Assembly (NCBI GenBank): GCA_044350705.1
Contig: JBILHA010000002.1
Coordinates: 242,295 to 306,294 of the forward strand
DNA: 64,000 nucleotides
From: Candidatus Kapaibacterium sp.
GTDB lineage: Bacteria > Patescibacteriota > Patescibacteriia > UBA9934
Direction: 5' to 3'
Shown: positions 386 to 57,635 of the stretch, in pieces
How positions within the stretch are numbered: the stretch's first letter is position 1
Layout of the letters: each line of letters starts with the position of its first letter
Translations under genes and position numbers: made by a program
Notes under the pieces: generated by a model
Seen by the model: the letters and a program-made list of their open reading frames with translations, nothing else
What the model was told of the DNA's origin: nothing
Database searches by the model: none

Positions 386-509
386 GAAAACCTTTTTATT
401 TCGAGGGATTTTTTACTCCGAAGAGGGAGGATTACCGATGCGTACTTACCGGTACGACGAGGCAACCGGACCGATGAGGGCAAAAAAGCACCGAAATAAA
501 AAGGTTTCC
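386..509 (+). ncRNA. Unclassified structured RNA element, copy 1 of 3 (tRNA-associated); 124 nt
   Basis: Closing helix gaaaacctttttatttcg (386-403) pairs with cgaaataaaaaggttt (492-507). Internal conserved boxes GAAGAGGGAGGATT (421-434), GTAC-stem hairpin cgtac-ttaccg-gtacg, and GAGGCAACCGGACCGATGAGG. About 80% identical to the copy at 7368-7491, with compensatory changes in the helix. Abuts the 3-prime end of tRNA-Ile on the opposite strand. Confidence 0.5.
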
Positions 510-512
510 CTT

Positions 513-589
513 TGGTAGGCCTGCCTGGATTCGAACCAGGGACCGCCGAGGTATAAGCTCGGAGCTCTAACCAACTGAGCTACAGGCCC
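513..589 (-). tRNA. tRNA-Ile, anticodon UAU (genomically encoded TAT)
   Basis: Reverse complement reads GGGCCTGTAGCTCAGTTGGTTAGAGCTCCGAGCTTATACCTCGGCGGTCCCTGGTTCGAATCCAGGCAGGCCTACCA, which folds as a cloverleaf. Acceptor GGGCCTG/CAGGCCT, anticodon stem CCGAG/CTCGG, loop CTTATAC, T-loop TTCGAAT, CCA encoded. The 5-prime half and 3-prime end CAGGCCTACCA resemble bacterial tRNA-Ile. Confidence 0.88.
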
Positions 590-597
590 ATACATTT

Positions 598-712
598 GCC
601 ACCCAAGTTTGTCCCTGGCGGTGTCGTGGGTCCCGACTGACTTCGTCAACGTCCATATAGGGGACGTCTCCTTGTCAGTCACCCACTCCTAGCCAGGAAC
701 AAACTTAGTGGC
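598..712 (-). other. Long imperfect hairpin (about 115 nt) immediately 5-prime of tRNA-Ile on the minus strand; possible leader or processing structure
   Basis: gccacccaagtttgtccctggc (598-619) is the near-reverse-complement of gccaggaacaaacttagtggc (692-712). Inner nested pairs gactgac/gtcagtc and acgtcc/ggacgt. Mismatches resolve to G-U wobbles only if the minus strand is the transcript. Confidence 0.4.
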
Positions 713-760
713 AAATGCATCGCTTCTTCATCACACGTCTCGCTTTTTTCATTTTTTTTA

Positions 761-785
761 CAACTGAACGAACTTAGTACCAAAT
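761..785. repeat. Conserved intergenic module M2 (caactgaacgaacttagtaccaaat), second copy at 61367-61391
   Basis: Near-identical 25-nt module shared with the region upstream of tRNA-Gly/capA. Confidence 0.6.
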
Positions 786-815
786 CTGCTTATCACGTTG
801 TATCAGACGGGTCGA

Positions 816-872
816 GGTACGCCTTGACGACCTTCCTCGCCCTTCCTTGAAGCTGACTAAACTTCGTAGCAA
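816..872. repeat. Conserved intergenic module M1 (ggtacgccttgacgaccttcctcgcccttccttgaagctgactaaacttcgtagcaa), second copy at 61251-61309
   Basis: About 90% identical over about 55 nt to 61251-61309. Contains a TTGACG box and, in copy B, a perfect 8-2-8 palindrome ctgactaa-ac-ttagtcag. Confidence 0.6.
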
Positions 873-928
873 CTTCTCAAAACTCCCCCACTATAGCTCA
901 AAGCCGTTCTTTCTGCCATACTTGCCCC

Positions 929-1858
929 ATGAAAACCTTTCATCCCTCTCAACCCGAGCCTACTCGGCTCGACATTGTGCTTGCTGCCTTCTTAGCAGTG
1001 AGTCGGTCCCAAGCCCAAAAGCGTATCGCTCAAGGCGATATCCGTATCAATGGAACTCCCGCTTCTTCGGCGCATGCTTTGGTATCTTCGTCTGATACGA
1101 TCGAGGTTACAGAAGCCCCTTTGCCTTCCGCGGAACCGCTTCCCCTTCCTCCTCTTACTATTCTCTATGAGGATGCAGATGTCGTGGTGGCAGAAAAAGC
1201 AGCGGGCGTACTCGTCCATCCTACCGGCGCCCAAGGCGCTCAAGAGCCTACCCTCATGGATGCAGTTATGACTCACTTTCCTCCCTTAGCTGGGGTGGGC
1301 GGTGATGCGCTGCGCTCCGGAGTCGTTCATCGCCTGGACCGTGAGGCTTCAGGGGTGCTTATTTTCGCCAAACATGATAAGGCGCATGCTTTTTTGAAGG
1401 AGCAGTTTAAGCAGCGTCTCACTAAAAAACTTTACGACGTTCTCGTGCTTGGTCGCGTGAAAGATGCGCACGGGACCATTACTTTCCCGATTGCTCGTTC
1501 CGCTCATCGAGGACGCATGGCTGCCCGACCCCTTTCTCAAGAGGGCAAAGATGCCATTACCCATTACGATGTCGTGCAGCATTACTCCTCTTCCACTCTT
1601 CTGCGCGTACATATTGAAACCGGTCGTACGCATCAGATTCGTGCTCATTTTTTTGCGCTCGGCCATCCTGTCGCGGGCGACACGCTGTATGTACAGCGCA
1701 ATCTCAAGCAGCTGAATCTGGGAAGACTTTTCCTCCATGCCGCCGAATTGCATCTCACTCTCCCGAATGGACAAGAGGCCATCTTCGCCTCTCCTCTTCC
1801 TCCCGACTTGCGCCAATTTCTTGAAGGACTCAAGCCCATGCCTTTATCTGCCGTATGA
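929..1858 (+). CDS. rluD: RluA/RluD-family 23S rRNA pseudouridine synthase with N-terminal S4 domain
   Basis: 309-aa ORF. HRLDREASGVLIFAKH catalytic motif typical of the RluA family, S4-like N-terminus, ATG at 929. Confidence 0.85.
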   Translation: MKTFHPSQPEPTRLDIVLAAFLAVSRSQAQKRIAQGDIRINGTPASSAHALVSSSDTIEVTEAPLPSAEPLPLPPLTILYEDADVVVAEKAAGVLVHPTGAQGAQEPTLMDAVMTHFPPLAGVGGDALRSGVVHRLDREASGVLIFAKHDKAHAFLKEQFKQRLTKKLYDVLVLGRVKDAHGTITFPIARSAHRGRMAARPLSQEGKDAITHYDVVQHYSSSTLLRVHIETGRTHQIRAHFFALGHPVAGDTLYVQRNLKQLNLGRLFLHAAELHLTLPNGQEAIFASPLPPDLRQFLEGLKPMPLSAV

Positions 1859-2412
1859 TCATTACGCTTGCCGGCCTCTCTGGGGCTGGAAAATCTACCG
1901 TCAAAAAAATTCTTGCCGACCGATTAGGATGGAAATCTTATTCCATGGGTGACATGCGCGGTGCATACGCACAAGAGCACGGAATGACCATTGATGAACT
2001 CAATGCTCTGGGCATGGAAGATCCTCAAACCGATGCGCTTGTGGATGAATTCCAAAAAGAACTCGGTGCACGAGAGGATAACTTTATTCTTGACGGCTGG
2101 CTCTCTTGGTATTTTATTCCGCAAAGTATTAAGGTCTTTTTAGACATTGACCCTGTCGAAGGAGCTCGACGCCTTTTTCGTGAGCAGCAGGATCACCCTG
2201 ACCATCGTCAGGATGAGCGAAAATACCGCGATATTGCCGATGTTCAAGAAACGCTTGCCCAGCGCGTCACGCAGAATCAGCAACGATATCAAAAGTGGTA
2301 TGGGGTCGATTTTCTCGATCCTGCTCATTACGATTTGCGCATTGATACCACCCCCCTGACGCCCGAGGAGGTAGCGGACCGCATCATGACCTATATTTCC
2401 TCGCGCGCTTGA
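1855..2412 (+). CDS. cmk: Cytidylate (CMP) kinase, short archaeal-type
   Basis: 185 aa. P-loop LAGLSGAGKST. ATG overlaps the rluD stop (ATGA coupling). Confidence 0.65.
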   Translation: MIITLAGLSGAGKSTVKKILADRLGWKSYSMGDMRGAYAQEHGMTIDELNALGMEDPQTDALVDEFQKELGAREDNFILDGWLSWYFIPQSIKVFLDIDPVEGARRLFREQQDHPDHRQDERKYRDIADVQETLAQRVTQNQQRYQKWYGVDFLDPAHYDLRIDTTPLTPEEVADRIMTYISSRA

Positions 2413-2472
2413 CGGTTTTTTGGTTTTTGGCTACCATTGGCGCATTCTTTTTTGGGAAATTCCCTCTTCAAT

Positions 2473-2820
2473 ATGGCACAAGTAAAAGACTACGCAGCAC
2501 TTGAACCTTCCGCTATTACTCCTGGGCAGGTTCTTCGCATTCATGAAAAGATCGTTGATATTGGCGCAAAAGGCGAAAAGCGTGAACGCGTCCAGATTTT
2601 CGAAGGCCTTGTTCTTGCTGTTCGCGGCGCAGGCCTTTCCAAGACCTTCACGATTCGCAAGGAAAGCAACGGATATGGGGTTGAGAAAATCTTCCCGGTC
2701 ACCACGCCTTCCATTGCAAAGATCGAATTGGTTAAGGCTTACCGCACCCGTCGTGCGCGTCTCACCTTCATCAAGGACTTTGCTCGTAAGTTGAAGGAAA
2801 TTGTTGTTGCAAAGGCGTAA
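2473..2820 (+). CDS. rplS: 50S ribosomal protein L19
   Basis: RVQIFEGLVLAVRGAGLSKTFTIRKESNGYGVEKIFPVTTP aligns with the conserved L19 core. The ORF track starts at a TTG (2437); the in-frame ATG at 2473 is preferred. Confidence 0.9.
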   Translation: MAQVKDYAALEPSAITPGQVLRIHEKIVDIGAKGEKRERVQIFEGLVLAVRGAGLSKTFTIRKESNGYGVEKIFPVTTPSIAKIELVKAYRTRRARLTFIKDFARKLKEIVVAKA

Positions 2821-2827
2821 TAAAAAA

Positions 2828-2860
2828 CTTCCTCGGGAAACCGAGGAAGTTTTTTATTTT
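2828..2860. terminator. Bidirectional rho-independent terminator between rplS (+) and the Cys-rich protein gene (-)
   Basis: cttcctcgg-gaaa-ccgaggaag perfect 9-bp stem with GAAA loop, followed by ttttttatttt. The reverse complement also ends in a U-tract. Confidence 0.8.
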
Positions 2861-4397
2861 ATGGCGTTAGGGTTACCGATCCTGAACATGCATAGTCATC
2901 AAATACATCGAATGCACCAAATCCTGTAAAGTTATCAAACACATCTTGTACCCAATTTGAGTCTACAAATCTACAGCTTCCTTGCTTCACCTCTCCTTTA
3001 TCGGCCAATTTACATGCGTCTTGCTCACACATCGAACCAAACACGTTCTTAAAGTCTTCAATTTGATCAGCAGATCCATAGTTGAGAATGTCCGCGATTC
3101 CGCCGCTTAAATCAACTCCATATGAATCAGCTTCGACATATTCATATGCTCCGCATCCATCTTCTAAGTCTGAAGCGACATCCTCGAGGAAGTAGCAATC
3201 AATATAGGTCCTTCCTTCCGTATAGAGAGCTACGCATTCATCTGCTCCTACTCCGTCTGCTCCAGAAAATTCAGAGAAGTCATCATCAAAATAGCAACTA
3301 TATACATGCTTGTCATTCGTCGCTCTCTTTTGCGCTTGTGAAGCTATTTGCGAACATACTGACGATGACGCCGTGAGACCGGTAGCAGAATTTAATGCTG
3401 ATACCTCTGCACATGAAACACACGTCCCCCCACTATTATCTCCTTTGATCACGCAGGATTTGCTCTTATCGTCACAGCCGCTATACATACAATCATCTCC
3501 CACTTCGGGAGGATTTGCGATGTTGAGGTTAATTTCATCATCTCCGCTTATCGTTCCCTTCTGCCCACACGTGCCGCTGATTTTCCCGTCGCTTGGGCAT
3601 GTACCGTCAATGCAAAATCCATATCCAAACAACGCCTCACACGTTGTGGCGTCATCAACCATCACCGCCTTTTTTACCAATGGGGGTCTGAGTTCATTAA
3701 ATCGAGTAAGGCGAGGATCTATAAGGTACGCGATGGCATATACCGACATGAGCAAAATGATCGCCGTGGCGGTATTGGCCATGCGGCCCTTTGCCTTTGC
3801 TACCGCGTTCTTATTCCCTCCTGCGGTCATGTACTGGAATCCCGCGATCGTAAACATGAGCGCACCAAAAATCCCCGCGACAGGGATCGCATAGGTGTAA
3901 ACAAGGTTTACATACGTTCCCAGGTTTGAAACCTGAGTTACCCCAAGAATAGGAACATTGAGCGTTACTGGCAGAAGTGGCCCATAGCAGTATCCCATCT
4001 CCGCCCCGGTTACCGATTGCTTGCTGCAATAGGGATTCTGATCACTCCACGTGCCTTTATACGTATCCCCCCCTATCTTTATCGGATAATCATTACACTC
4101 CTTTTCCGTCCAGCAGAGATTGCTATTCTCTGGATATGACGCTTCGTCCGCGAAGCATCCCACGTACGTCGCACCCCCATCTGCACATTCCGCAGCACAG
4201 GTGCTCGCGTCTTCTCTTCCTCCGATAGATCCTGCTCCTTGCTTCACGTCTCCACAAAAGCATTCACAGCTCGCTGCAATTGCTTGCGGAGCAAAAGATA
4301 TTCCCCAAAAAAACATCGCAACGACGAGTGCTATTCCTTTACTGAGCCAACGATTGTGCCGCTTCATACAAAATGCCATACGGGACTGCCCCTTCAA
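2859..4397 (-). CDS. Cysteine-rich (about 35 Cys) membrane protein; N-terminal signal/anchor plus a central two-TM hairpin reminiscent of VirB2/TrbC-type pilins; hypothetical
   Basis: 512-aa ORF. N-terminal hydrophobic segment LSKGIALVVAMFFWGISFAPQAIAAS. Two Cys-rich acidic domains (CECFCGD..., many CxxC, CxC, GTC motifs) separated by IPVAGIFGALMFTIAGFQYM - basic loop AGGNKNAVAKAKGRMANT - ATAIILLMSVYAIAYLI. Start overlaps the upstream dsbA-like gene. Confidence 0.6.
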   Translation of the reverse strand: MKGQSRMAFCMKRHNRWLSKGIALVVAMFFWGISFAPQAIAASCECFCGDVKQGAGSIGGREDASTCAAECADGGATYVGCFADEASYPENSNLCWTEKECNDYPIKIGGDTYKGTWSDQNPYCSKQSVTGAEMGYCYGPLLPVTLNVPILGVTQVSNLGTYVNLVYTYAIPVAGIFGALMFTIAGFQYMTAGGNKNAVAKAKGRMANTATAIILLMSVYAIAYLIDPRLTRFNELRPPLVKKAVMVDDATTCEALFGYGFCIDGTCPSDGKISGTCGQKGTISGDDEINLNIANPPEVGDDCMYSGCDDKSKSCVIKGDNSGGTCVSCAEVSALNSATGLTASSSVCSQIASQAQKRATNDKHVYSCYFDDDFSEFSGADGVGADECVALYTEGRTYIDCYFLEDVASDLEDGCGAYEYVEADSYGVDLSGGIADILNYGSADQIEDFKNVFGSMCEQDACKLADKGEVKQGSCRFVDSNWVQDVFDNFTGFGAFDVFDDYACSGSVTLTP

Positions 4398-5085
4398 TTT
4401 TTACTCCGTTTACGAACAATGTAGGGGTGGAAGTTACTCCCGCCGCAACACCGTCAGCGATGTCACCTGCGACCTCATTCTCGTAAAAATCTGATTCCAT
4501 GCATTGGATATATGTCCGTTTCTCCAAACCTGCCGAGAGGGCATACTGCAACAGATTTTCTTCCGTAAATTCCCCCGAGCTTTTATTGAGGAGCCTATAC
4601 ATTTCCTCATACTTTCCCTGCTCAGACGCGCATTCCGCTGCCATTGCTGCCTTATCTGCCCCTGGATGGAGGTCGGTGAGGGGAAAATCTCGCATGATCA
4701 CCCTTACTTTATCGCCCATATTACGTGCGATCGCTTCTAGCGCGTAACTTTCTTCTTGGGAATAGGGGCAGCCGAAGTCCGAGAAGGCAACGATCGTGAT
4801 GGGAGCATCCGCGGGGCCAAGCACCGGATCGTCCTCGGTTGCGAGCTCTCCACTCCCCTCGCTTTGTCTTGCCAACGCCGCAAGACGAGTTGCCGTAGCC
4901 TGGGTCGCATCGTATTTTTCCATGGGCAATAACTCTCCCGAGCGGAAATCCCGATAATAGGCAAAAATTTTCCAGGCAAACCCCCCCACCCCCACAAACA
5001 CCAATACAAATACGAAGGTTACAAGTGCTTTTACATAAGAAAATGCATGCCTGGGCCCTCCTTCCATATAGAAAAAGTATACCAT
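4339..5085 (-). CDS. DsbA-like thioredoxin-fold protein with monothiol CPYS active site, N-terminal membrane anchor
   Basis: 248 aa. FSDFGCPYSQ at the position of the DsbA CxxC; DNA tgc ccc tat tcc verified. C-terminal VTSTPTLFVNG is typical of the DsbA cis-Pro region. Hydrophobic N-terminus VTFVFVLVFVGVGGFAW. Confidence 0.7.
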   Translation of the reverse strand: MVYFFYMEGGPRHAFSYVKALVTFVFVLVFVGVGGFAWKIFAYYRDFRSGELLPMEKYDATQATATRLAALARQSEGSGELATEDDPVLGPADAPITIVAFSDFGCPYSQEESYALEAIARNMGDKVRVIMRDFPLTDLHPGADKAAMAAECASEQGKYEEMYRLLNKSSGEFTEENLLQYALSAGLEKRTYIQCMESDFYENEVAGDIADGVAAGVTSTPTLFVNGVKIEGAVPYGILYEAAQSLAQ

Positions 5086-5142
5086 CCCCTAAAATTCGTT
5101 CATCTTTACGCCCCCTCTCAGATTTGGTACACTCTCTTCGAT

Positions 5143-5358
5143 ATGATTTTGGATGTTATCCTTCTTATTCTCAGCGTACTTCTTTGTGGCGCTATCCTTC
5201 TTCAAGCTCGCGGTACCGACGCAGGGCTCGCATTTGGCGGAGATGGCAGCATGTATCGCACTCGCCGCGGCATTGAGAAATCTCTCCATGTAGGCACCAT
5301 TGTCCTTGCGGTACTCTTCTTTGTTACCGCGCTCTTGAACATGTTGTTTACTTGGTAA
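5143..5358 (+). CDS. secG: Preprotein translocase subunit SecG
   Basis: MILDVILLILSVLLCGAILLQARGTDAGLAFGG matches the SecG LLQxGKG..G..FG signature. The ORF track TTG start at 5047 gives an implausible extension. Confidence 0.8.
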   Translation: MILDVILLILSVLLCGAILLQARGTDAGLAFGGDGSMYRTRRGIEKSLHVGTIVLAVLFFVTALLNMLFTW

Positions 5359-5459
5359 ACGCACGTTCTCTGCTTCGCTCTCTTTTTTCACGCCTGGTTT
5401 CTCGAAAAAACGCCGGATCTCAATCGGGCGAACATTTGTCTCTTCGGCAGGTCAGCGCC

Positions 5460-7145
5460 ATGAAAGGCGGTAGGTACCTTCCTCGTTTTTCTCAAATTCA
5501 ACAGTTCCCTCGCATTCTTTCTTCCCTTGAGAAGCGCCTTTTCACCGCTGGGCTCGCGCTTTTCATATTAGGATCCGTCTTTCTCCTCATTGGAGGTTTT
5601 TCTCATTTTTTTGTTACCGTCCCTCAGCGCGGAGGCACGCTTACGGAAGGCATGCTCGGATATCCCCAGCTCATCAATCCCCTCTATGCCGATGCGAATA
5701 CCGTTGATCGTGAGCTGACCTCGCTTATTTATAGTGGCCTTCTTATTTACAATCCCACCTCCGATGCTCTTGAGCCTCATTTAGCGGAATCCTGGTCTTT
5801 AAGCGAAGATGAGAAAATGTACACTTTTACTCTCCGACAAGACGTTACTTGGCATGACGGAGAACCTTTTAGCGCATACGATGTCATTTTCACTTATTCT
5901 GCGCTCCAAAATGCCGCATACGGCAGTCCACTCTTTGATGCTTATCAAAATATTATTATTTCCCAGGTAGATGATCGTACGCTTACCTTTACGCTTGCCG
6001 AGCCTTACGCAGCATTTCCCGAACTTCTCACGGTAGGCATCCTTCCCGCCCACCTCTGGGAAGAAATAGCGCCTGCAAATGCTCGTCTCGTTGCGCTCAA
6101 CCTCAAGCCGGTTGGCACTGGTCCTTATCTTCTCGAAAAAACAAGCAAAGATTCTCGGGGTATTATTCGCAGCATCACTCTTCAAACTTTCGATGAGTAT
6201 CTCGGCATCCGCCCTTACCTCGATGAGATTATCGTTAAGTTCTTCTCAAACACCACGGACATCATGCAGGCGCTCCAGACAAAGCGCATCGATGCCACCG
6301 CTACTCTTTCTCTTACCGAAGCCCTCACCTTACAGGATGACAACGCACTTCGCATCACCCCCCTCCCGCTCTCTCAATACGTAGGGGCATTCTTCAATAC
6401 ACAAAAGGATCCGCTTAAGTCACTTGAAATCCGCAAGGCCCTCACCCTCTCACTTGATATTCCCGCCATCACCGCAGATGCAACAGGAAATCTGGGGCAG
6501 CCCACGGGATTCGCCCTGCCAGGCTTTCCTGCTACCGCCGCGAGCGTTCAGGATACTCAAACTGCCAGCCTCATCTTAGAAGAAGCTGGGTGGTCTCTCA
6601 ACGAGAACGGCAAGCGTACTCAAGGAAACAATGAGCTCACCCTTACTATCACCACCGCAGAACGCCCCGAGCTTCTGCGCGCCGCGGAAAAGGTAGCGGA
6701 AAACTGGAGATCTTTAGGCATTACCGTCACGGTCTCCCCCCTCTCCTACGCTGGCATTGCCACCGCTCTTCAAGAAAAGACCTACGATGTTCTTCTTGCC
6801 GCGGAGCAATATGGCATTATTGCCGATCCTTATCCATTCTGGCACTCCACAGGAAAGAATGCCGGCGGTCTCAATATGAGCCTCTTCTCGACTTCAGCAG
6901 CGGATACGGCGGTCAGTACTCTTCGAACTTCTGCAAATACTGAGAAGCGTCAAGAAGCGTTCAATACGCTCAATCAAGAACTTCTTGAGCACATGCCGGT
7001 CGTTTTCCTTTTCCAAAACGCCCTTCCGCTTGTCCATACCGTGGATATCATGGGGATAACTCCTGATGCCATCCCCCATACTTCTGCGCGCTGGCTCCTG
7101 GAATCTTCATGGTATCGCCGGACGGGCCTTTCTTGGAAGTTTTGA
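5460..7145 (+). CDS. ABC transporter substrate-binding protein, family 5 (OppA/DppA-like), membrane-anchored
   Basis: SBP_bac_5-like architecture in a 597-aa ORF; N-terminal TM LFTAGLALFILGSVFLLIGGF. ATG at 5460 preferred over the TTG at 5352. Confidence 0.75.
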   Translation: MKGGRYLPRFSQIQQFPRILSSLEKRLFTAGLALFILGSVFLLIGGFSHFFVTVPQRGGTLTEGMLGYPQLINPLYADANTVDRELTSLIYSGLLIYNPTSDALEPHLAESWSLSEDEKMYTFTLRQDVTWHDGEPFSAYDVIFTYSALQNAAYGSPLFDAYQNIIISQVDDRTLTFTLAEPYAAFPELLTVGILPAHLWEEIAPANARLVALNLKPVGTGPYLLEKTSKDSRGIIRSITLQTFDEYLGIRPYLDEIIVKFFSNTTDIMQALQTKRIDATATLSLTEALTLQDDNALRITPLPLSQYVGAFFNTQKDPLKSLEIRKALTLSLDIPAITADATGNLGQPTGFALPGFPATAASVQDTQTASLILEEAGWSLNENGKRTQGNNELTLTITTAERPELLRAAEKVAENWRSLGITVTVSPLSYAGIATALQEKTYDVLLAAEQYGIIADPYPFWHSTGKNAGGLNMSLFSTSAADTAVSTLRTSANTEKRQEAFNTLNQELLEHMPVVFLFQNALPLVHTVDIMGITPDAIPHTSARWLLESSWYRRTGLSWKF

Positions 7146-7210
7146 CCTTCCTCTCTTTTCATGATACGCTTTCTCGTGATTTTGCCGCGCTCTTACGCCG
7201 GCGTTTAGCG

Positions 7211-7250
7211 AAAAGGGATTTCGCATGGGTGCGTAGGGATTACGCTTGAG
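7211..7250. repeat. Direct repeat R1 (aaaagggatttcgcatgggtgcgtagggattacgcttg); partner R2 at 7592-7630
   Basis: About 75-80% identity over about 40 nt. The two copies flank the structured element plus tRNA-Leu(CAG). Confidence 0.5.
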
Positions 7251-7367
7251 GACATGGGTATTTCTCTTGAAAAACGGATGAATTGAGGGAGGAAAGGATT
7301 TCACCTGAAAGGAAATTTTTTCCTCAATAAAGAACGTATTTTTTCACTGATAATAAGCTCACTTCTG

Positions 7368-7491
7368 GAGAACGGCTTTATTTCGAGGCAGTTTTTGTTC
7401 CGAAGAGGGAGGATTGCCGAGAGGTACTCATGCGTACGGCGAGGCAACCGAACCGATGAAGACAAAAAATGACCGAGATAAAGCCGTTCTC
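7368..7491 (+). ncRNA. Unclassified structured RNA element, copy 2 of 3; 124 nt, ends 7 nt upstream of tRNA-Leu(CAG)
   Basis: Closing helix gagaacggctttatttcg (7368-7385) / cgagataaagccgttctc (7474-7491), 18 bp with one G-U. Internal boxes identical to copy 1. A G-U wobble supports the + strand being the RNA strand. Confidence 0.55.
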
Positions 7492-7498
7492 CCAACGG

Positions 7499-7585
7499 GC
7501 GGATGTGGCGGAATTGGCATACGCGCAGGTCTCAGAAGCCTGTCCTTTCACGAGGTTGAGGGTTCAAGTCCCTCCATCCGCACCA
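7499..7585 (+). tRNA. tRNA-Leu, anticodon CAG
   Basis: GCGGATG...CATCCGC-A-CCA acceptor. Anticodon stem CAGGT/GCCTG with loop CTCAGAA. Long variable arm (class II). T-loop GGTTCAAGTCC. CCA encoded. Confidence 0.9.
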
Positions 7586-7591
7586 AATGTA

Positions 7592-7630
7592 AAAAGGGAT
7601 TTCATATGGGAGTACGGGGATTACGCCTGG
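7592..7630. repeat. Direct repeat R2 (aaaagggatttcatatgggagtacggggattacgcctgg)
   Basis: Partner of R1 at 7211-7250. Begins 7 nt after the tRNA-Leu(CAG) CCA. Confidence 0.5.
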
Positions 7631-7741
7631 AAACGTAGGGAGTATGTATGGAAGCACGGTGAGTGAGGCGGTGGGAATGGGTTTAGTGTTTTTGTAAGTG
7701 TAGTTTCTTGAAAACTCGACTCACAAAAGTACTAAAACTTA

Positions 7742-9628: not shown

Positions 9629-9670
9629 GGAAAAGATAGCAACAGATGAAGGCGGATTTGACAGATGCAA

Positions 9671-9702
9671 AGAGCTCTCTGAGATTTCAGAGAGCTCTTT
9701 TG
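9671..9702 (+). terminator. Hairpin terminator after rnj
   Basis: agagctctct-gagatttc-agagagctct perfect 10-bp stem followed by a short T-run. Confidence 0.5.
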
Positions 9703-9715
9703 CTATGATGTTCTT

Positions 9716-10147
9716 GTGCTTGAACAAGAACTCAGCCATAAGCTGATCGGAATCGCGATGCAGGTCCAGAATTTATACGGAAGTGCTCATCAAGAAATTA
9801 TCTACCAAAGAGCTTTGGAAGAAATCCTTCGCAAAGAACAGATTTCCTTTCTCGCGCAACCTCGTCTCCCTGTACGATCTCCGATCTCACAAAAAATTCT
9901 TGGCTTTTATAAGCCTGATTTTTTAGTTTCTTCAAAAATTATTGTAGAAATTAAAGCGGTACCGTACCCTATAGCTAGGTTTGAACAGCAAATATCTAGC
10001 TACCTTAAAAATTCTCCTTACGAAATCGGATATCTGATTAACTTCGGGATCCACCCCCTTTATTACCGAAGATTGTTTCATACGAAGGATCGTAAGATTT
10101 CCCCGCATCCTCCCCATCCGCCATCATCTGTCTTATCTCATCTATGA
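9716..10147 (+). CDS. GxxExxY-family protein (PD-(D/E)xK nuclease-like fold)
   Basis: LIGIAMQV...GSAHQEIIYQRALEEEL...LPV...GFYKPDFLVSSKIIVEIKAV...YLK...GYLINFG matches the conserved GxxExxY/TIGR04256 pattern. Stop overlaps the trpS start. Confidence 0.7.
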   Translation: MLEQELSHKLIGIAMQVQNLYGSAHQEIIYQRALEEILRKEQISFLAQPRLPVRSPISQKILGFYKPDFLVSSKIIVEIKAVPYPIARFEQQISSYLKNSPYEIGYLINFGIHPLYYRRLFHTKDRKISPHPPHPPSSVLSHL

Positions 10148-11124: not shown

Positions 11125-11327
11125 GGTCAAAAAGCACATCTTTTCTCTGGAAAAACAGTCCTTTGTGGCTGTTTTTTCTTTCTTTTTCAACGATCGCTTC
11201 TCTCTCATCGAGGCTCATCCTTGATTTTTTCACCTTTTTCTGGCATAGTCATGTCACTCAAAAGCCGCTCGGGTCACTCCGACCTCTGCGCTGATGAGCG
11301 ACCACCGAAGGAAAAGGACCAGCGACG

Positions 11328-12377: not shown

Positions 12378-12383
12378 CTTGCC

Positions 12384-12882: not shown

Positions 12883-12889
12883 TTCTCGA

Positions 12890-13463
12890 CCTGGCCAGCA
12901 AGACGATTGCCCCAAGAACTCAATCATAAGAAAGAGTGGGAGAACGTTCTTATTTTGGACTAGTTTCGGCGCGCGACGCTGCTTGGGTCGTCAAGACGTA
13001 CAAAATAGTACGTCGTCGACACAAGCAAGGAGCAAGCTGAAAATAGACGAAATAAGAACGTTCTCTTGGGGAGGAAAGTCCGAACACCCTTTATGCAGCA
13101 ATGCATATCGCAGAAAAGGCGTTGCTAACAGCAACCGCGCGTAAGCGTAGGGAAAGTCTCGTGCAAACGAAAGAATGCGCGGGGTCAGAACCTGCTGGAA
13201 ACGGCAGGCAATGACGCAACAGAGACATTCAAGCCCGCCCTGATTCGTTCGAGCGGGCAAAAGGTGAAACGTGTGGGGTGCGCAAGCTTCCCCACTCCCT
13301 GCATGGTGACATGCAGCGGTGGCAAACCCGCCTTGGTGCAAGAGCAAATTTGGTAGCTCGCGCTGAGCATGCTGGCGACAGCATGCCAAGAGAGATGATC
13401 GTCTCCCACTTCGCTCCTTCGGAGCTTCGTCGGGAACAGAATTCGGCTTATCAGTTGACCAGG
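12890..13463 (+). ncRNA. rnpB: RNase P RNA (bacterial type) with an unusually expanded 5-prime (P1-P3) region
   Basis: GGGGAGGAAAGTCCGAACACC (13068-13088; P4 5-prime strand) and ACAGAATTCGGCTTATCAG (13436-13454; P4 3-prime strand). GTGAAACG motif. P1 candidates cctggccag (12890-12898) / ttgaccagg (13455-13463). Core 13055-13463 is confident; the 5-prime boundary is less so. Confidence 0.7.
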
Positions 13464-13481
13464 TATGAAAAAATCCGTCGA

Positions 13482-48988: not shown

Positions 48989-50072
48989 ACCTGCCCAGGA
49001 AGATATTTCCTCGTTTCTCCAACTTTATTCCGATAATTTTCGCGTCAAAACAAGTTACAAAATCTTCGCATATGGTAACTATTCTCGCACTCGATGGCAC
49101 GCGACTCAATTCACTCTCTAGCTCCTCGGTCGGAGTATATATCGCCGAAATAGCCACACTTCCTAATATCGGATGAGGCTTGCTCGCGCTTTCTTGTCGC
49201 GTATCCACTGTCAGCACATTTTGCTGTTGGAGTTCTTTTATTTCATCGGTAGAAAATATCTTCGTATATTGTGGATCACTGTATACCGCAGAGAATGCAA
49301 TCTCTCCTTCAAATATTCCTCCCGCTTCAACCCATCCGCTTACCCCATTTTCCAGTGCTTGTGCCATAATCCCCCTTTCTCGCAAGTAAGCCGAGATCTC
49401 ACTTCCACGAATACCCGACCAGCAAATTACAAATACCAGTCGATCCCTGGGAAGCACTTCCCATTTGCCTGCAAGAAGGTCTGCAAAACGTATGTGCGTA
49501 CTTCCTGGATAGTGTCCTATCTCGTACTCCTCGTCTTCACGGGCATCTAGTATAAAAGCATCTTCAGCCTGTTGTTCAAAATCACTATTTGTTACAAGCA
49601 GAGGAAGATTTTCATGCGCCTTAAAGAAATCGCTTCGTGTATCTTCCGCTTCTTCTGCATCCTTCCTCGCAATCTCTTCATGCAATTTCTCTGCAACTTG
49701 CTTCCCATACTCTTCCTGAGCATACAGCCTTCTTACTTCAACGACCGTGTACGCCGTCGATAGTGCAACTCCGAGCGTACTTATCGCCACCAGTAAAATG
49801 ATGATGGGTTTCCGACGTACAAACATCCCTATTCTTTTGAAATACTGGAGTACAAAAGAGAATGCCAGTGAAAGAAACACGGCGAGTAAACTAAAGATCT
49901 GAACAAATGAAGATCCGATATTTGAAAGTATTTCGGGGGGAGGAATGGCGTGCGACTCTCGCGGCCATACTGCCGTAGCAAGGAGAAAAACAAGAAACGC
50001 AGCTCGCGGATTTCTCTCCTCCTTTTCTTTGCCCCCACTTCCCACGTCTTTTGCTCCTGAAGGCCGCTTCAT
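48966..50072 (-). CDS. Membrane-anchored rhodanese-domain protein (two rhodanese-like modules)
   Basis: Two TM helices near the N-terminus; FVICWSGIRGSEIS active-site Cys loop. Confidence 0.55.
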   Translation of the reverse strand: MKRPSGAKDVGSGGKEKEERNPRAAFLVFLLATAVWPRESHAIPPPEILSNIGSSFVQIFSLLAVFLSLAFSFVLQYFKRIGMFVRRKPIIILLVAISTLGVALSTAYTVVEVRRLYAQEEYGKQVAEKLHEEIARKDAEEAEDTRSDFFKAHENLPLLVTNSDFEQQAEDAFILDAREDEEYEIGHYPGSTHIRFADLLAGKWEVLPRDRLVFVICWSGIRGSEISAYLRERGIMAQALENGVSGWVEAGGIFEGEIAFSAVYSDPQYTKIFSTDEIKELQQQNVLTVDTRQESASKPHPILGSVAISAIYTPTEELESELSRVPSSARIVTICEDFVTCFDAKIIGIKLEKRGNIFLGRYATPWEY

Positions 50073-50139
50073 ATCTCTCCTATCATACCGCTTTTATAAA
50101 CAAAAAACAGCTCTTTCGAGCTGTCTTCTGTATAAAATC

Positions 50140-50261
50140 GCACGGTTCTGGCGGCAACCTACTCTCGCCAACCTTGACTACCATCGGCTCACAAAGGCTT
50201 AACGGCCGTGTTCGGAATGGGAACGGGTGTGACCCTTTGGAAAGAACCACCAGAACCGTGC
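50140..50261 (-). rRNA. rrf: 5S ribosomal RNA
   Basis: Reverse complement contains CCCATTCCGAACACGGCCGTTAAGCC and GGTAGT motifs. About 120 nt. Terminator acagctcgaaagagctgt plus U-tract downstream (50108-50135). Confidence 0.85.
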
Positions 50262-50337
50262 GATCTTATGTGCTTCTCGCACAAGAATACTGATTGAAGA
50301 AATGCTTTTGCATTCGTCAGCCACCACGCGTTTTGCG

Positions 50338-53378
<3,041 letters not shown>

Positions 53379-53474
53379 GCACAACAGCAGTGTTGCGGTC
53401 TTTTTCGAAGTGGGATGGCGAATTGCAAATATGCATCATCTTCATCAGTATTCAGTTGTGAAAGTGCGGCAGAA

Positions 53475-53503
53475 TAGTATCTCTTCCCTGTGGTATTGTC
53501 AAG
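53475..53503 (-). promoter_or_regulatory. Candidate rRNA promoter TTGACA-17-TACTAT (minus strand) about 90 nt upstream of 23S
   Basis: Reverse complement of 53475-53503 reads cTTGACAataccacagggaagagaTACTAT. Confidence 0.55.
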
Positions 53504-53567
53504 AAGTCATCCACGGCACGAGAACACTCTTCTTCCTGCCTTTGTTTTTTGGCTAATATTCCTTTGT

Positions 53568-53993
53568 ATGCTGAAGACTCTCCTTCTTTCGGTTGGCGAT
53601 CTGCCTTCGGGAGGCTTTCGAGAAATTGGGGATAACTTTCTCCTTTTTTTAAAGAAATACGCGAGCATCGAAACTCGTTCTTATAAGTCGTCAAAACTCC
53701 TCCTCGAAAAAGCTCCGAGAGACGCTTTTCTTTTGGATGAGCGCGGCAAGAGCTATACCTCCCATTCCTTTGCCGCCCTTCTTTCCCAATTTGAAGATCG
53801 CGGAGATACCTTTACTCTTCTCTTGGGAGGCCCGGATGGCTTTACCGCCCAGGAAAAAGCGCCGTTTCAAAAAATCTCCCTTTCTCCCATGACCACAACG
53901 CACGATATCGCGCATCTTTTTCTTCTTGAGCAGCTGTTTCGCGGCCTCAGTATTGTGCATGGATCGAGTTATCATCGCGATGAGCCAAAATAA
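53568..53993 (+). CDS. rlmH: 23S rRNA (pseudouridine1915-N3)-methyltransferase RlmH (SPOUT)
   Basis: MLKTLLLSVGDL N-terminus; C-terminal SLSPMTTTHDIAHLFLLEQLFRGLSI is typical of RlmH. About 140 aa. Confidence 0.8.
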   Translation: MLKTLLLSVGDLPSGGFREIGDNFLLFLKKYASIETRSYKSSKLLLEKAPRDAFLLDERGKSYTSHSFAALLSQFEDRGDTFTLLLGGPDGFTAQEKAPFQKISLSPMTTTHDIAHLFLLEQLFRGLSIVHGSSYHRDEPK

Positions 53994-54028
53994 AACTCCC
54001 GCCGAGATCTGGCGGGAGTTTTATTTCC
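53994..54028. terminator. Bidirectional terminator
   Basis: aactcccgcc-gagatct-ggcgggagtt followed by ttatttcc. Confidence 0.7.
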
Positions 54029-54350
54029 AGGTGCGCTTTTTGTTTATTTCCTCTTTTTCACGAATAGCCTCTTCAATATTTATTGAGAAGCTATTTGCGA
54101 GGTCGAGCAGATACATAGTGACATCGGCGAATTCTTCTTTGAGATTATGAAGCTTTTCTTCGTCGGTATGCGTTCCTTCTACGTGCATGCCTTCCATTTT
54201 CCGGATGGCTTTTGCGAGCTCACCAATTTCTTCACTAAAGAGAAGGAACTTCTCAAGGGGTGTGTTCTTATCAAATCCTCGCTCTTTACACATGTGTTCG
54301 ATCCATTTTTGTGCATCTGGCAAAGAGACGTTTTTGGGAAAATCTTGCAT
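54021..54350 (-). CDS. MazG-like nucleotide pyrophosphohydrolase
   Basis: 109 aa; EExGELAKAIRK and EEFADVTMYLLDLA EExxE/D motifs. Confidence 0.7.
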   Translation of the reverse strand: MQDFPKNVSLPDAQKWIEHMCKERGFDKNTPLEKFLLFSEEIGELAKAIRKMEGMHVEGTHTDEEKLHNLKEEFADVTMYLLDLANSFSINIEEAIREKEEINKKRTWK

Positions 54351-54356
54351 ATCTTT

Positions 54357-54749
54357 TTATTCTTTTTCTTGGAGTTCTTGGAGAAATGCTTTCGTGGCAG
54401 GATATGCCGGCAACTCTTTTGTTTCGGATAAGTAAAACCATCTTCCTTCTGCAATCTCATCCTGATCGATTTGTAATTTCTCTCCTGGTTTTACCTTGGT
54501 GGTAAAGCAATAAACCGTTCCCTCTCCAAAATCAAATGGGATTTGCATGATTTCTTTGACATCTTCGTACGCCAACTCTATTCCCGCCTCTTCTCTCACC
54601 TCACGTATTCCCGCCGCGCGAGGATCTTCATCTTCGTCATCGACTCCCCCTCCAAGAGGCTGCCATTTATCCGGATAACTATGCGTTCTTACTAAAAAGA
54701 TTTCTCCTTTTTCGCTTACCAGCGCGACTATCGCTACATCTCTTTTCAT
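54357..54749 (-). CDS. NUDIX hydrolase
   Basis: Nudix box GGGVDDEDEDPRAAGIREVREEAGIE. Confidence 0.75.
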   Translation of the reverse strand: MKRDVAIVALVSEKGEIFLVRTHSYPDKWQPLGGGVDDEDEDPRAAGIREVREEAGIELAYEDVKEIMQIPFDFGEGTVYCFTTKVKPGEKLQIDQDEIAEGRWFYLSETKELPAYPATKAFLQELQEKE

Positions 54750-54752
54750 ACT

Positions 54753-55352
54753 TTATAAAAGCAAATCTGCGTACGCGTCTGGGAGGGATTTTCCTGGGGC
54801 GTAAACAATAGGTTCAGCGATTGCTTTCTCGATAGTTTCGAGAATGATTGGATACTGAGATTGCTCGTTAAAATGTCCGCCGGTTTCTGGAGTAAAAAGA
54901 TGGCCGTGGAAAACGGTTGCGTATTTTTGTGCATGATCGACGGGAATGACTTTGTCGTTTTTTGCATGGACGATGTAAAAACGGGAGGCGCGCCACATGA
55001 GGACGTCATGGTCGAGGTCGGATAAGAAGAAGCCGCGGAAGCGCTCGTCTTTAATGAACCAGGGGGCAGAAATCAGTACGCATGCTTTTGGCGTCGTGCG
55101 TGCTTCGGCGGCTTCGAGAAAACGAAGCGCGGCAGCACCTCCTAAGCTGTGGCCGACGATAATATCCTCTTCGGTAAGAGTACGTGCAGCTTCAACAAGC
55201 GCCTTTGTCCAGGTTTCGGGATCAGGATTTTCGGGGTCAGGAAGGTCGGGAATGAGGACTTCGTGGCCGCGCTTCTTGAGCTCATCTTCAAGCCAGGGCC
55301 AGAAGTGGAGGCTAGAAGATGAGCGATAGCCGTGAATGCCGATGATGCGCAT
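54753..55352 (-). CDS. Alpha/beta-hydrolase (esterase/lipase-like)
   Basis: GHSLGG nucleophile elbow; 199 aa. Confidence 0.6.
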   Translation of the reverse strand: MRIIGIHGYRSSSSLHFWPWLEDELKKRGHEVLIPDLPDPENPDPETWTKALVEAARTLTEEDIIVGHSLGGAAALRFLEAAEARTTPKACVLISAPWFIKDERFRGFFLSDLDHDVLMWRASRFYIVHAKNDKVIPVDHAQKYATVFHGHLFTPETGGHFNEQSQYPIILETIEKAIAEPIVYAPGKSLPDAYADLLL

Positions 55353-55452
55353 AGGGTGGGAGCTGAGAAAGGGAGTATACGTGGGAGCTTAGGGAGTAAG
55401 GGGAGTATGGGGAGTGTTTTTTTTATTTAGAGTACGGGAAAGTGAGGAAACT

Positions 55453-55478
55453 GAAAACCGCCCGAGGTTGGGCGGCTT
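55453..55478 (-). terminator. Rho-independent terminator after the membrane protein gene
   Basis: ccgccc-gaggtt-gggcgg stem; U-tract on the minus strand. Confidence 0.65.
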
Positions 55479-55482
55479 TCTT

Positions 55483-56610
55483 TTACTTGCTTGCTTTTGC
55501 TGGGGTTGTTTTTTGCTTTGCACGAAGGAACATGAGTCCGCCAATTGCTATGCCTGCAACAATGACTAGCGCAAAAATGTTTTGCACAATTGCCGATACC
55601 ACAATAGTGATGAGTGAAAGTACGAGTGCAACGATGAGTGTTACCCCTCCAATCACCGCGCGACTTGCTCCTCCCAAAAATGGCAAGATATCGAGCAATG
55701 TTGAGAAAGGACCGGTGACTGCCATCATTCCTGCCCACATGAGCAAGAATCCTACGAGACGGAAAATCCAGAGCATCATTTTATATTCACCATGCATGGT
55801 TGCGAGCGCTTCATCGCGTCCACCTTCGAAAACACGAAATACGCCGTTGCCTTTTTTATCTGTGAATTTTGTTACTTCCGAACCACTCACTTCTCCAAAA
55901 ATTGTTCCGAGCATTCCTTCTTTGAGCACCGAAAATGAAACGCGCTCGTCGCCTACTTTTGGCGCGGCTGGATCTGCACCCTTGAGATAGATATATCTTC
56001 CTTGAATGACTGCGTCTTTTGGTAGCTCTACCATTGCGGGCGTGAGCGAAATTTCATCGCCGCCGCCAATGGATACTTCTTGGCCGTTGAAGCTATACGC
56101 ACCGACTGTCATGGTTTCGGGATTGTATGATCCGTATTCCTGCGTTGGTGCTGGGTTTTCGTGACCCTCTGGATATTCGAACGTTGATGAATCGCTTGGC
56201 GACGCGGTCCATGCTTTTTGATAATTGTACGTGGTTGTTGTGGTTTCTGATCCTCCGAGATTTGTTTGGCTTTGTGACTCACTCTCTTGTTCCCATGCGT
56301 ACATTTCCGCGGTTCTTGTCACGATAAGATAAGGGCCTGGCTTGAGGTACATTCCGTCACCGATATCTTCGCTTCCCATGATTTTTCCTGTCATGGATAC
56401 GAATGCGCCGTCTTTACCGGCATCTACCGTTTCTGCGGAAATTGCTTCGGATTTTTTTGCAATATCGGAAATGTCGACTCGACCCTCATTCCAATACAAC
56501 ACACCGAATGAACCAAAAAACATTGCAACTCCCATGACTACTCCACTGATAGAATTCATGATGCGTTTTCCGAATCCTACGGTCGTTGTTTGTGTATATG
56601 TATCAGGCAT
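55483..56610 (-). CDS. Hypothetical membrane protein (N-terminal TM, large extracytoplasmic domain, C-terminal multi-TM; TMEM43/DUF1625-like)
   Basis: 375 aa with hydrophobic termini. Confidence 0.45.
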   Translation of the reverse strand: MPDTYTQTTTVGFGKRIMNSISGVVMGVAMFFGSFGVLYWNEGRVDISDIAKKSEAISAETVDAGKDGAFVSMTGKIMGSEDIGDGMYLKPGPYLIVTRTAEMYAWEQESESQSQTNLGGSETTTTTYNYQKAWTASPSDSSTFEYPEGHENPAPTQEYGSYNPETMTVGAYSFNGQEVSIGGGDEISLTPAMVELPKDAVIQGRYIYLKGADPAAPKVGDERVSFSVLKEGMLGTIFGEVSGSEVTKFTDKKGNGVFRVFEGGRDEALATMHGEYKMMLWIFRLVGFLLMWAGMMAVTGPFSTLLDILPFLGGASRAVIGGVTLIVALVLSLITIVVSAIVQNIFALVIVAGIAIGGLMFLRAKQKTTPAKASK

Positions 56611-56656
56611 AGTTTAAGTTAATTGCGCTCATCATACCGGATTTTTCCTTTTTTCT

Positions 56657-57307
56657 TTATTCCTTGGGGATAGGTGTGAAACGCGACTGTTGTCCTTCTG
56701 GCGTTTCAACATGACCATAAAACTCTTCCTTGGGACGCACCCACCATTCTCCATTACGCAAAGATTCGTATACCACATGCTCACGCTCGTCGTTCGTATG
56801 CAGCGCCTCACCCACAATGCGATAGAAACCTCCTTTGAAATGTTTTACGATCTTTTTCTCTGGGAAAAATGCGTTGAATACTTTTTTAAAATCTGGGAGC
56901 GTTTTCAACTTTCTTACTTCGTCGATTGCTAACCACACGTAGTCTTGCGATTCCCGATCACGTGTTACGTTTTCTGCGGTGACTTCTACAAGTACCGCAT
57001 GCACGATCCACGTCTTTTTATTTTCCTCATCTTCTTGCGTGAAGATAGGACCGCGACGAATGTGTACTACATGATCAGATGGAATTCCTCCTTCTTCTTG
57101 CAATTCTTCAAGCACCTTTTCTTCAATCGTTTTTTCGTCATCAAGAAAGCCAGAAATGCCATTCCAGTGGTGCGGATGCAAATCCATTTTTACACCCCGC
57201 TGAATCATCAAGATTTTTCCTTCGCGATGCACGACACAATTCACCACCGGTGCGTAACGAATATTCGTATAATCAACTCTCCCTGATTTTGGAATAAATT
57301 CCGACAT
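56657..57307 (-). CDS. NUDIX hydrolase fused to a C-terminal DUF1653-like domain
   Basis: Nudix box GISGFLDDEKTIEEKVLEELQEEGGI. C-terminal FKGGFYRIVGEALHTNDEREHVVYESL. Start at the ATG 57307 avoids overlap with the structured element; the longer ORF to 57496 is rejected. Confidence 0.55.
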   Translation of the reverse strand: MSEFIPKSGRVDYTNIRYAPVVNCVVHREGKILMIQRGVKMDLHPHHWNGISGFLDDEKTIEEKVLEELQEEGGIPSDHVVHIRRGPIFTQEDEENKKTWIVHAVLVEVTAENVTRDRESQDYVWLAIDEVRKLKTLPDFKKVFNAFFPEKKIVKHFKGGFYRIVGEALHTNDEREHVVYESLRNGEWWVRPKEEFYGHVETPEGQQSRFTPIPKE

Positions 57308-57391
57308 ATCTTCCTTTCTGCTTGTATAAAACTTCCTGATTCTGTACCATTTTATCCGATTCAGTAAAAAGCTGAATGGTTTGGGAGAAAT

Positions 57392-57635
57392 GGAAAACGG
57401 TTTTATTTGGAGACAGTTTGGACCTGAAGAGGGAGGATTCACGAGCCGTACCAAAAATGTACGGTGAGCGAACAGGACCGATGAGCGTAAGGTCATAAGG
57501 CAAGAATTAAAAACATTTTTATTTTAGGCTAGTTTTGGCTCGCGACGCAGAAGGCGTCGTCAAGGCCTACTCAAATGTAGGCCGTCGACGCTTTCAAGGA
57601 GCATGACAAAAATAGACAAAATAAAAATGTTTTCC
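57392..57635 (+). ncRNA. Unclassified structured RNA element, copy 3 of 3 (about 244 nt; carries an extra multi-hairpin insertion), ends 3 nt before tRNA-Leu(UAG)
   Basis: 5-prime ggaaaacggttttatttgg (57392-57410) pairs with caaaataaaaatgttttcc (57617-57635). Shares the boxes GAAGAGGGAGGATT, ccgtac-caaaaat-gtacgg hairpin and GAGCGAACAGGACCGATGAG. Inserted hairpins gacgc-agaag-gcgtc and ggcctac-tcaaat-gtaggcc. Confidence 0.45.

Follow-up and report, generated by a model that had tools for sequence, protein, structure and literature searches.

We describe a family of palindromic hairpin elements, each about 125 nt long, in a stretch of 64,000 nucleotides (hereafter the window) from contig JBILHA010000002.1 (assembly GCA_044350705.1, deposited as Candidatus Kapaibacterium sp.; positions 242,295 to 306,294 of the forward strand). 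The elements lie beside tRNA genes and within RNase P RNA, and on balance we favour reading them as a lineage-restricted superfamily of non-autonomous, mobile, insertional hairpins. We favour this because of their sporadic presence among relatives, the replacement of one subfamily by another at a single site, the mosaicism of arms and cores, the debris and tandem growth around complete copies, and a clean insertion into RNase P RNA. Because the hairpins come and go between close relatives, they look more like selfish insertions than like a new riboswitch or ribozyme. The seven hairpins of the window, like every other one in the 85 kb of this genome that were examined, are located in stable-RNA units, with none among protein-coding genes. 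A literature search found no published description of these elements.

Flanking genes and RNase J homologues place the host in Candidatus Uhrbacteria, phylum Patescibacteria; the genes used included a type IV secretion pilin, a lamin-tail-domain protein and RNase J. Syntenic loci of relatives were collected through their RNase J homologues and are labelled here with the identity of that protein to the one in the window: L012 (87%), L005 (86%), L007 and L009 (82% each), L011 (80%), L013 (77%), L014 (75%), L034 (73%), L018 (72%) and L035 (64%). Two further loci, L015 and L017, are the window's own DNA (L015 has 0 mismatches over 12,543 shared bases) and add 8.5 kb to its right and 9.1 kb to its left, within a contig of 462 kb. 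The sample amounts to approximately 300 kb from 10-12 genomes. A scan of genome contigs with an exact pattern gave one match, in a coding region and by chance, and the same scan of metagenome contigs gave one true ortholog (L002) and two chance matches; the pattern was too strict. Relaxed patterns for subfamilies A and B matched 14 loci in viral contigs, none of which had a model match or a tRNA, and we regard these as chance matches.

One superfamily of hairpins

An earlier note, made from the letters of the window alone, had reported a family of three structured elements, each abutting a tRNA gene. The three copies are present on the + strand where it placed them (386-509, 7368-7491 and 57392-57635), and their distances to the adjacent tRNAs, as called by ARAGORN and Rfam, are indeed 3, 7 and 3 nt. 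The sequence GAAGAGGGAGGATT has three exact occurrences, and seven are found when up to two mismatches are allowed (0.69 expected). Copies 1-3 fold with z-scores of -4.6 to -7.4 relative to dinucleotide shuffles. The Rfam comparison that the note proposed was run, and no family matches any copy at the gathering score or at E≤1-10.

The family has more members than these three. Covariance model R1 was built from an alignment of six subfamily A copies (A3) and model R2 from nine subfamily B copies. R1 finds further hairpins in RNase P RNA and in the 5' leaders of tRNA-Gly and tRNA-Ile, together with matches in relatives, and R2 cross-detects subfamilies A and C. Neither model has a match in L009, L011, L034 or L035. 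With both models, the count of related hairpins in the window comes to seven (Table 1). Arms and cores have been exchanged among the subfamilies, and judged by cross-detection the hairpins make up a single superfamily, in which there are at least three arm types (A, B and C) and the cores are shuffled.

These additional members change the earlier description in several respects. The proposed tie to class-II tRNAs does not hold, as relatives of the element also precede tRNA-Ile, tRNA-Gly and tRNA-Leu(UAA) and occur in RNase P RNA. Nor does every copy abut a tRNA, since one hairpin sits inside RNase P RNA. tRNA-Ala lacks the element, as had been stated; tRNA-Gly, for which the same was claimed, has a hairpin directly 5' of it. 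Copy 3, described as a single element with an insertion, actually consists of two overlapping units. The second unit has A-type arms around a different, GC-rich core, ends 3 nt 5' of tRNA-Leu(UAG), and has its helix supported by a compensatory T>C / A>G change in L002.

Table 1. Hairpins and associated features of the window (MFE, minimum free energy in kcal/mol)
Feature	Position	Strand	Support or remark
Hairpin, subfamily A, copy 1	384-511	+	R1 128.9 bits; MFE -39.8 (+ strand), -44.1 (- strand)
tRNA-Ile(UAU)	513-589	-	ARAGORN, Rfam
Hairpin, subfamily B, tRNA-Ile 5' leader	586-724	-	R2 111.8 bits, R1 26.4 bits; MFE -76.1
Truncated copy (5' half) of the tRNA-Gly-leader hairpin, further upstream in the tRNA-Ile leader	815-867	-	94% identical to 61250-61302
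Promoter-like ATGGCA-18-TATAGT, tRNA-Ile transcript	890-919	-	Motif kept in L005 and L007
Promoter-like TTGACC-17-TACGCT, tRNA-Leu(CAG) transcript	7142-7170	+	Overlaps SBP stop codon
GGGA-rich direct repeat, upstream copy	7211-7269	+	Repeat family D1
Hairpin, subfamily A, copy 2	7366-7493	+	R1 134.5 bits; MFE -54.7, z -7.4
tRNA-Leu(CAG)	7499-7585	+	ARAGORN, Rfam
GGGA-rich direct repeat, downstream copy	7592-7650	+	Repeat family D1
RNase P RNA, revised 5' boundary	12889-13466	+	Alignment to L005 RNase P RNA
Hairpin in P3 loop, A-type arms, core like copy 3 unit 2	12938-13067	+	R1 65.2 bits, E 3e-12; MFE -69.1, z -10.9
tRNA-Ala	41786	+	ARAGORN, Rfam
Copy 3 unit 1, subfamily A, degenerate 3' arm (pairing breaks down)	57391-57522	+	R1 101.7 bits
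Copy 3 unit 2, complete hairpin	57507-57636	+	Inverted repeat 100% complementary; MFE -52.9; R2 29.6 bits
tRNA-Leu(UAG)	57639-57722	+	ARAGORN, Rfam
tRNA-Gly(GCC)	61107-61181	-	ARAGORN, Rfam
Hairpin, B-type arms, core with GAAGAGCGAGGA, tRNA-Gly 5' leader	61182-61314	-	R2 102.4 bits, R1 47 bits; MFE -62.7

In the same genome, 1.5-2 kb beyond the right end of the window, four tandem subfamily B units precede tRNA-Leu(UAA) (L015 13254-13790). The cores of units 1 and 4 are 97% identical, and only the tRNA-adjacent unit is a complete hairpin. A 99-aa open reading frame called on this array has no Pfam match and is probably spurious. tRNA-Ala and tRNA-Val of this genome have plain promoters and terminators and no hairpin.

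The hairpins form a covarying rod

Each element folds into a long rod made up of a closing stem of 18-22 bp, a middle section of G.A pairs and an apical hairpin, and some elements bear a short purine-rich 5' tail. The outer part of the closing stem varies among copies with its pairing kept. The two boxes of the earlier note do recur; they are not free single strands but pair with each other, 5'-GA-A-GA-GG-GA-GG lying opposite 5'-CC-G(A)A-CC-GA-U-GA in the A3 consensus. The paired boxes form three tandem G.A/A.G steps with one or two Watson-Crick pairs between them; beneath the apical CGUAC/GUACG hairpin is a fourth tandem G.A. This series of tandem G.A pairs makes the rod a distinctive RNA motif that can be put to the test.

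The conserved structure that the note had proposed is borne out by covariation. In A3, 88.6% of cells are paired, compared with at most 48% in controls with slid partners; 15 of the 44 pairs show double changes, and none of 500 shuffles reaches the observed covariation score. The four compensated closing-helix pairs that distinguish copy 1 from copy 2 correspond to A3 columns 6/186, 10/182, 11/181 and 12/180. Pairs also change within the boxes, where GG/CC becomes GC/GC in L012 and AC/GU in L007. Double changes are found at 29 of the 43 pairs in the nine-copy subfamily B alignment, and the subfamily B hairpin that ends 3 nt ahead of tRNA-Ile has orthologs in L005 and L007 with fully compensated closing stems.

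Assignment of the rod to the + strand from G-U wobbles, as the note had it, is weak: the ratio of G.U to A.C is 1:2 in copy 1 and 1:1 in copy 2 (2:0 in L012 and 2:3 in L007). Most copies fold 5-17 kcal/mol better on the canonical strand, including three copies on 3' flanks; copy 1 and its L007 ortholog (2593-2777, which carries an internal insertion) fold slightly better on the tRNA strand.

Turnover among relatives

The 5' site of tRNA-Leu(CAG) is occupied by a subfamily A hairpin in the window and in L012 (4823-4949, the ortholog of copy 2), by subfamily C in L013 and L014, and by subfamily B in L018, and it is empty in L005, L007, L009 and L011. The 3' flank of tRNA-Ile carries a subfamily A hairpin in the window and L007 and lacks one in L005 and L009. 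Fragments are found farther from the gene than complete copies, as with the truncated hairpin in the tRNA-Ile leader and copy 3 unit 1, and core-only pieces occur upstream of tRNA-Leu(UAA). Among the alternatives offered by the earlier note, a mobile element resembling a miniature inverted-repeat transposable element is thus the best supported, by presence and absence at orthologous sites and by the RNase P RNA insertion described below; the copies are dispersed (seven in 64 kb) and orthologous sites are found empty.

The note had further claimed that the final bases of copy 2 form the upstream edge of a direct-repeat-bounded segment containing the element and tRNA-Leu(CAG). With seeds of 7 nt, a repeat search turned up none that takes in these bases. 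The sole direct repeat bracketing the element and its tRNA is the GGGA-rich pair of Table 1, the upstream copy of which stops 99 nt ahead of the start of copy 2. Runs of GGG(A) spaced approximately 10-11 nt apart are found more widely, at 7211-7290, 7592-7690, 55358-55413 and 57738-57759, that is, in the tRNA-Leu(CAG) leader and trailer, the tRNA-Leu(UAG) trailer and one intergenic spot. The pattern GGGA-N5-9-GGG-N5-9-GGGA has eight matches against 0.52 expected, and these runs could be protein-binding arrays or G-quadruplex-prone tracts.

An insertion in RNase P RNA

The RNase P RNA of the window aligns closely with that of L005 outside P3 (81% column identity overall when the insertion is scored as gaps). 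In L005, P3 reads GCCCC-TTCGGCATTCGCCTCA-GGGG and in the window GCCCC-AAGAACTCAATCATAAGAAAGAGT-[hairpin]-TT-GGGG, so that a P3-loop insertion of approximately 140 nt containing the hairpin is present in the window and not in L005. L009 and L013 likewise lack the insertion and have short P3 hairpins. The hairpin of the window is directly followed by GGGGAGGAAAGUCC, the P4 strand. By this alignment, it is an insertion into the P3 loop.

Read by eye, the 5' strands of P1 and P2 lie at approximately 12889-12909. The Rfam RNase P RNA match begins only at 13043, approximately 150 nt late, and scores 103.7 against a cutoff of 100, because P1/P2 of the model were matched to the 3' arm of the inserted hairpin. 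The same hairpin thus fills tRNA leaders, expands P3 of RNase P RNA and misleads the boundaries set by covariance models. Large helix extensions have been noted before in the RNase P RNAs of these bacteria, without a hairpin insertion as the explanation (PMC8172020). The family provides one concrete source of the unexplained stable-RNA extensions in the tiny-genomed bacteria of the candidate phyla radiation.

Predicted leaders, spacing and orientation

The motif TTGAC(C/G)-N17-TAnnnT has a single match per locus, at the syntenic spot just after the SBP gene, in 10 of 10 loci. The predicted tRNA-Leu(CAG) leader measured from it is 20-34 nt long in the hairpin-free L005, L007, L009 and L011 and 170-371 nt long where a hairpin is present. 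A similar conserved motif lies ahead of the tRNA-Ile leader. These promoter-like motifs lie upstream of the 5'-side hairpins, which are therefore predicted to be transcribed within pre-tRNA leaders; the tRNA-leader reading raised by the earlier note agrees with this, as the motif places the hairpin inside the predicted transcript. On these predictions, the elements occupy transcribed parts of stable-RNA units that are discarded or structurally tolerant. A hairpin does little damage in a leader that RNase P removes, on a 3' flank or in the P3 loop.

The spacers between hairpin and tRNA (CCAACGG, CAG and TAT) agree with positions -7 to -1 of the native leader at empty sites, and therefore insertion did not take place at the mature tRNA end. 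We rejected joining at mature tRNA ends by reverse transcription and template switching on this same ground, the match to the native leader (CCAAC..) of empty sites.

All 5'-side hairpins and the P3 copy are on the gene strand, and all 3'-flank hairpins (copy 1 of the window, two in L007, and those of L013 and L018) are on the opposite strand. With this pattern on both flanks, the element invariably has its 3' end toward the gene. Allowing for orthology, there are approximately nine independent cases on the 5' side and two to four on the 3' side. If this rule of polarity and position is true genome-wide, it would be a rare bacterial case of small elements homing to stable-RNA genes, with natural filled and empty sites for the study of mechanism.

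Proposed mechanism and alternative explanations

In the mechanism that we propose, the hairpins would spread by insertion and local tandem duplication, with an insertion polarity that sets the 3' end of the element beside the stable-RNA gene. Newer, complete copies would be gene-adjacent and older ones would decay farther out. A copy in a leader would, as RNA, be lost with the leader when RNase P cuts, possibly aided by RNase III acting on the long stem, and its cost to the host would therefore be small. The hairpin would be kept since the mobilising or processing machinery would recognise the nucleic acid in its folded form.

Several observations weigh against mobility as we propose it. No target-site duplication was seen at the subfamily A or P3-copy junctions, by reading and by one search with 7-nt seeds. 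The window encodes no transposase, reverse transcriptase or integrase, none is recorded among the genes called in this genome's flanking loci, and we know of no autonomous partner of these hairpins. The gene spacing of 0-7 nt and the regular orientation are unexplained by a simple argument from safe places. The very strong covariation, with some G.U pairs conserved on the canonical strand, and the retention of a subfamily B hairpin 5' of tRNA-Ile in three genomes would both be equally compatible with selection for an RNA function at each locus. The sample of genomes is also small. Functional and targeted-delivery readings stay alive because spacing, polarity, covariation and the missing target duplications and mobilising gene are unexplained.

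The most serious functional explanation is that the hairpin is a host-beneficial cis module of stable-RNA precursors, a platform for a protein or RNase III that aids processing, folding or stability; the rod might even couple RNase P to a subset of its substrates. The strong covariation and the conservation of loop purines and G.U pairs on the canonical strand speak for such a module, as does the better folding of that strand in most copies. The hairpins occur only with RNase P substrates and RNase P RNA, and the subfamily B hairpin 5' of tRNA-Ile is kept in the window, L005 and L007 though the remaining leader is unalignable. Very close relatives nevertheless lack the hairpin in the same tRNA leaders and in RNase P RNA, tRNA-Ala and tRNA-Val of the same genome manage without one, and a single site holds different subfamilies in different genomes. 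The 3'-flank copies would moreover be transcribed as the reverse complement, and a search for promoters driving their canonical strand found none that is convincing. We therefore consider a cis module possible but doubtful. More speculative, and in our view unlikely, is that the hairpins are a bacterial counterpart of tRNA-gene-targeted elements, delivered as rod RNA or single-stranded DNA, 3' end first, to the boundaries of stable-RNA genes, or alternatively that the rod is a protein-binding module linking RNase P RNA to some of its own substrates. Targeted delivery would explain the mirrored orientation at tRNAs, the stacking of newer copies by the gene and the hit in RNase P RNA.

The hairpin could also be an independent trans-acting small RNA with its 3' end cut by RNase P at the downstream tRNA or tRNA-like fold, on the model of MALAT1/mascRNA and plant tRNA-snoRNA units. 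It has a stable structure (z down to -10.9) and a 3' end that always lies 0-7 nt before a cloverleaf, sense or antisense, the antisense tRNA still scoring as a tRNA-derived fold (a match to Plastid-ycf2). No cloverleaf follows the P3 copy, however, no promoter was found for the antisense cases, and the hairpin is sporadically absent in relatives. The rod also has no segment that is both variable and unpaired, as guide or target pairing needs, and we judge this explanation quite unlikely. It is very improbable that the hairpin is a guide RNA of the box C/D-like or TIGR type to which a Nop-domain (Tas) protein binds. This was suggested by CUGA ... GUGAUGA in the L007 copy, by CUGA in copies 3 and L002, and by the four tandem units 5' of tRNA-Leu(UAA), and TIGR stem-loop arrays, alongside which a clade of such proteins has been reported, are known from bacteria of the candidate phyla radiation (PMC12045711). 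A K-turn or box C/D was rejected for L007 since the U and C residues in the supposed boxes covary as members of Watson-Crick pairs (GG/CC to GC/GC to AC/GU), and because of this covariation its apparent C box GUGAUGA is a by-product of pairing. Guide units of this kind have conserved C (RUGAUGA) and D (CUGA) boxes and variable guide segments. Conserved loops and variable stems are the opposite of what spacers would give, and the window encodes no Nop, Tas or L7Ae protein, nor do the gene records of the flanking loci list one.

We give least credence to an integron attC site, an intrinsic terminator, a riboswitch, a T-box or a self-cleaving ribozyme. The AAC...GTT ends of subfamily A and the presence of a long hairpin in a leader recall such elements, yet there is no Rfam match, and subfamilies B and C have other arms without AAC/GTT ends. 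The attC likeness of the ends, another suggestion of the earlier note, fails also in subfamily A, in which they are GAAAAC/GTTTTC and not the RYYYAAC...GTTRRRY core sites of attC, which belongs to cassette arrays next to intI, and no integrase is encoded in the window. Positions of a candidate hammerhead core, which in that ribozyme is an invariant CUGANGA ... GAAA around three stems, vary (CCGAUGA, GCGAUGA and GUGAUGA; GAAC, GGAC and GCAG), again with no Rfam match. A T-box or riboswitch was set aside as no family matches at E≤1-10 and immediately downstream, where a riboswitch would have its expression platform, is a tRNA or the P4 strand. As for a terminator, in which a U-tract comes after a GC-rich stem, the stem here has no U-tract, ordinary terminators follow tRNA-Ala, tRNA-Gly, tRNA-Val and tRNA-Leu(UAA), and a terminator scan reports no site at copy 1 of the window or at the L013 hairpins. 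Its two matches in the L007 copy are short sub-hairpins, a count near the shuffle expectation.

Comparison with known elements

Taken as mobile insertions, the hairpins resemble several known systems in part. ERIC/IRU and Correia repeats are non-coding imperfect palindromes of approximately 100-170 nt found in proteobacteria; their multiple copies vary in presence, and insertion variants exist. Transcribed together with neighbouring genes, they fold as RNA hairpins, which in the case of Correia repeats are cut by RNase III; they are scattered between protein-coding genes, and many have TA duplications. The present hairpins are similarly multi-copy, variably present, palindromic and non-coding. 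Unlike those repeats, they are confined to stable-RNA loci, have a fixed polarity and a conserved tandem-G.A core, and show no duplication that we could see.

Intervening sequences occur in helices 25 and 45 of bacterial 23S rRNA, where an extended hairpin replaces the loop of a helix; they are sporadic in relatives, are tolerated since the site is permissive, and are excised from the transcript by RNase III. The P3 copy is likewise a sporadic extended hairpin that replaces the loop of a stable-RNA helix, and it fits the picture of a permissive site. To our knowledge, intervening sequences are known in rRNA and not in RNase P RNA or tRNA leaders, which is where the present hairpins lie. The 23S rRNA of the window has no match to the hairpin models.

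The Dictyostelium elements TRE5/TRE3 and yeast Ty3 insert at a fixed short distance from tRNA genes with a position-specific orientation, and are autonomous retrotransposons guided by Pol III factors. Short distances to tRNAs and position-specific orientation are shared by the hairpins, which differ in being non-coding bacterial elements of about 125 nt for which no reverse transcriptase was found. For organelle hairpin elements, we know of no gene-abutting, fixed-polarity rule. Two reports describe mobile hairpin families that invade organelle intergenic regions, namely sponge mitochondrial RHE (PMC2800124) and algal palindromic repeats (PMC4524435). The likeness lies in a family of mobile hairpins, and the difference in the bacterial host and the unrelated sequence.

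TIGR stem-loop arrays have been reported in bacteria of the candidate phyla radiation (PMC12045711), and like the present family they have hairpin units with palindromic stems, sometimes in tandem, in a host from that group. The loops of TIGR units carry variable spacers flanked by short box motifs and lie next to a Tas gene, whereas the loops here are conserved and mutually paired, with no Tas gene nearby.

Other observations

The anticodon UAU of tRNA-Ile, unusual for bacteria, is conserved in all Uhrbacteria loci fetched, and this tRNA is apparently co-transcribed with a downstream open reading frame for a 52-aa membrane protein. The antisense strands of tRNA-Ile (515-589, +) and tRNA-Leu (7499-7583, -) score 33 and 23 bits against Rfam Plastid-ycf2, below threshold; even in reverse complement, a tRNA retains a fold like a cloverleaf.

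The 23S rRNA (50146-53370) has several insertions relative to the bacterial model, for example of approximately 54 and 59 nt, none of which matches the hairpin models. It is followed by 5S rRNA, with no 16S rRNA nearby.

Just upstream of the RNase J start codon, several relatives have a small conserved hairpin followed by GCCGACTGTCAGGA/GAAT (approximately 9730-9775 in L009, 9790-9835 in L011, 9925-9965 in L013, 4150-4195 in L014 and 1100-1140 in L018), possibly a leader element belonging to the RNase J gene; the window differs in sequence here. The window, L007 and L018 have a small PD-(D/E)XK gene (PDDEXK_3, 9716-10147 in the window) between those for RNase J and TrpRS; L005, L009, L011 and L013 lack it, which makes it another presence/absence polymorphism of this neighbourhood.

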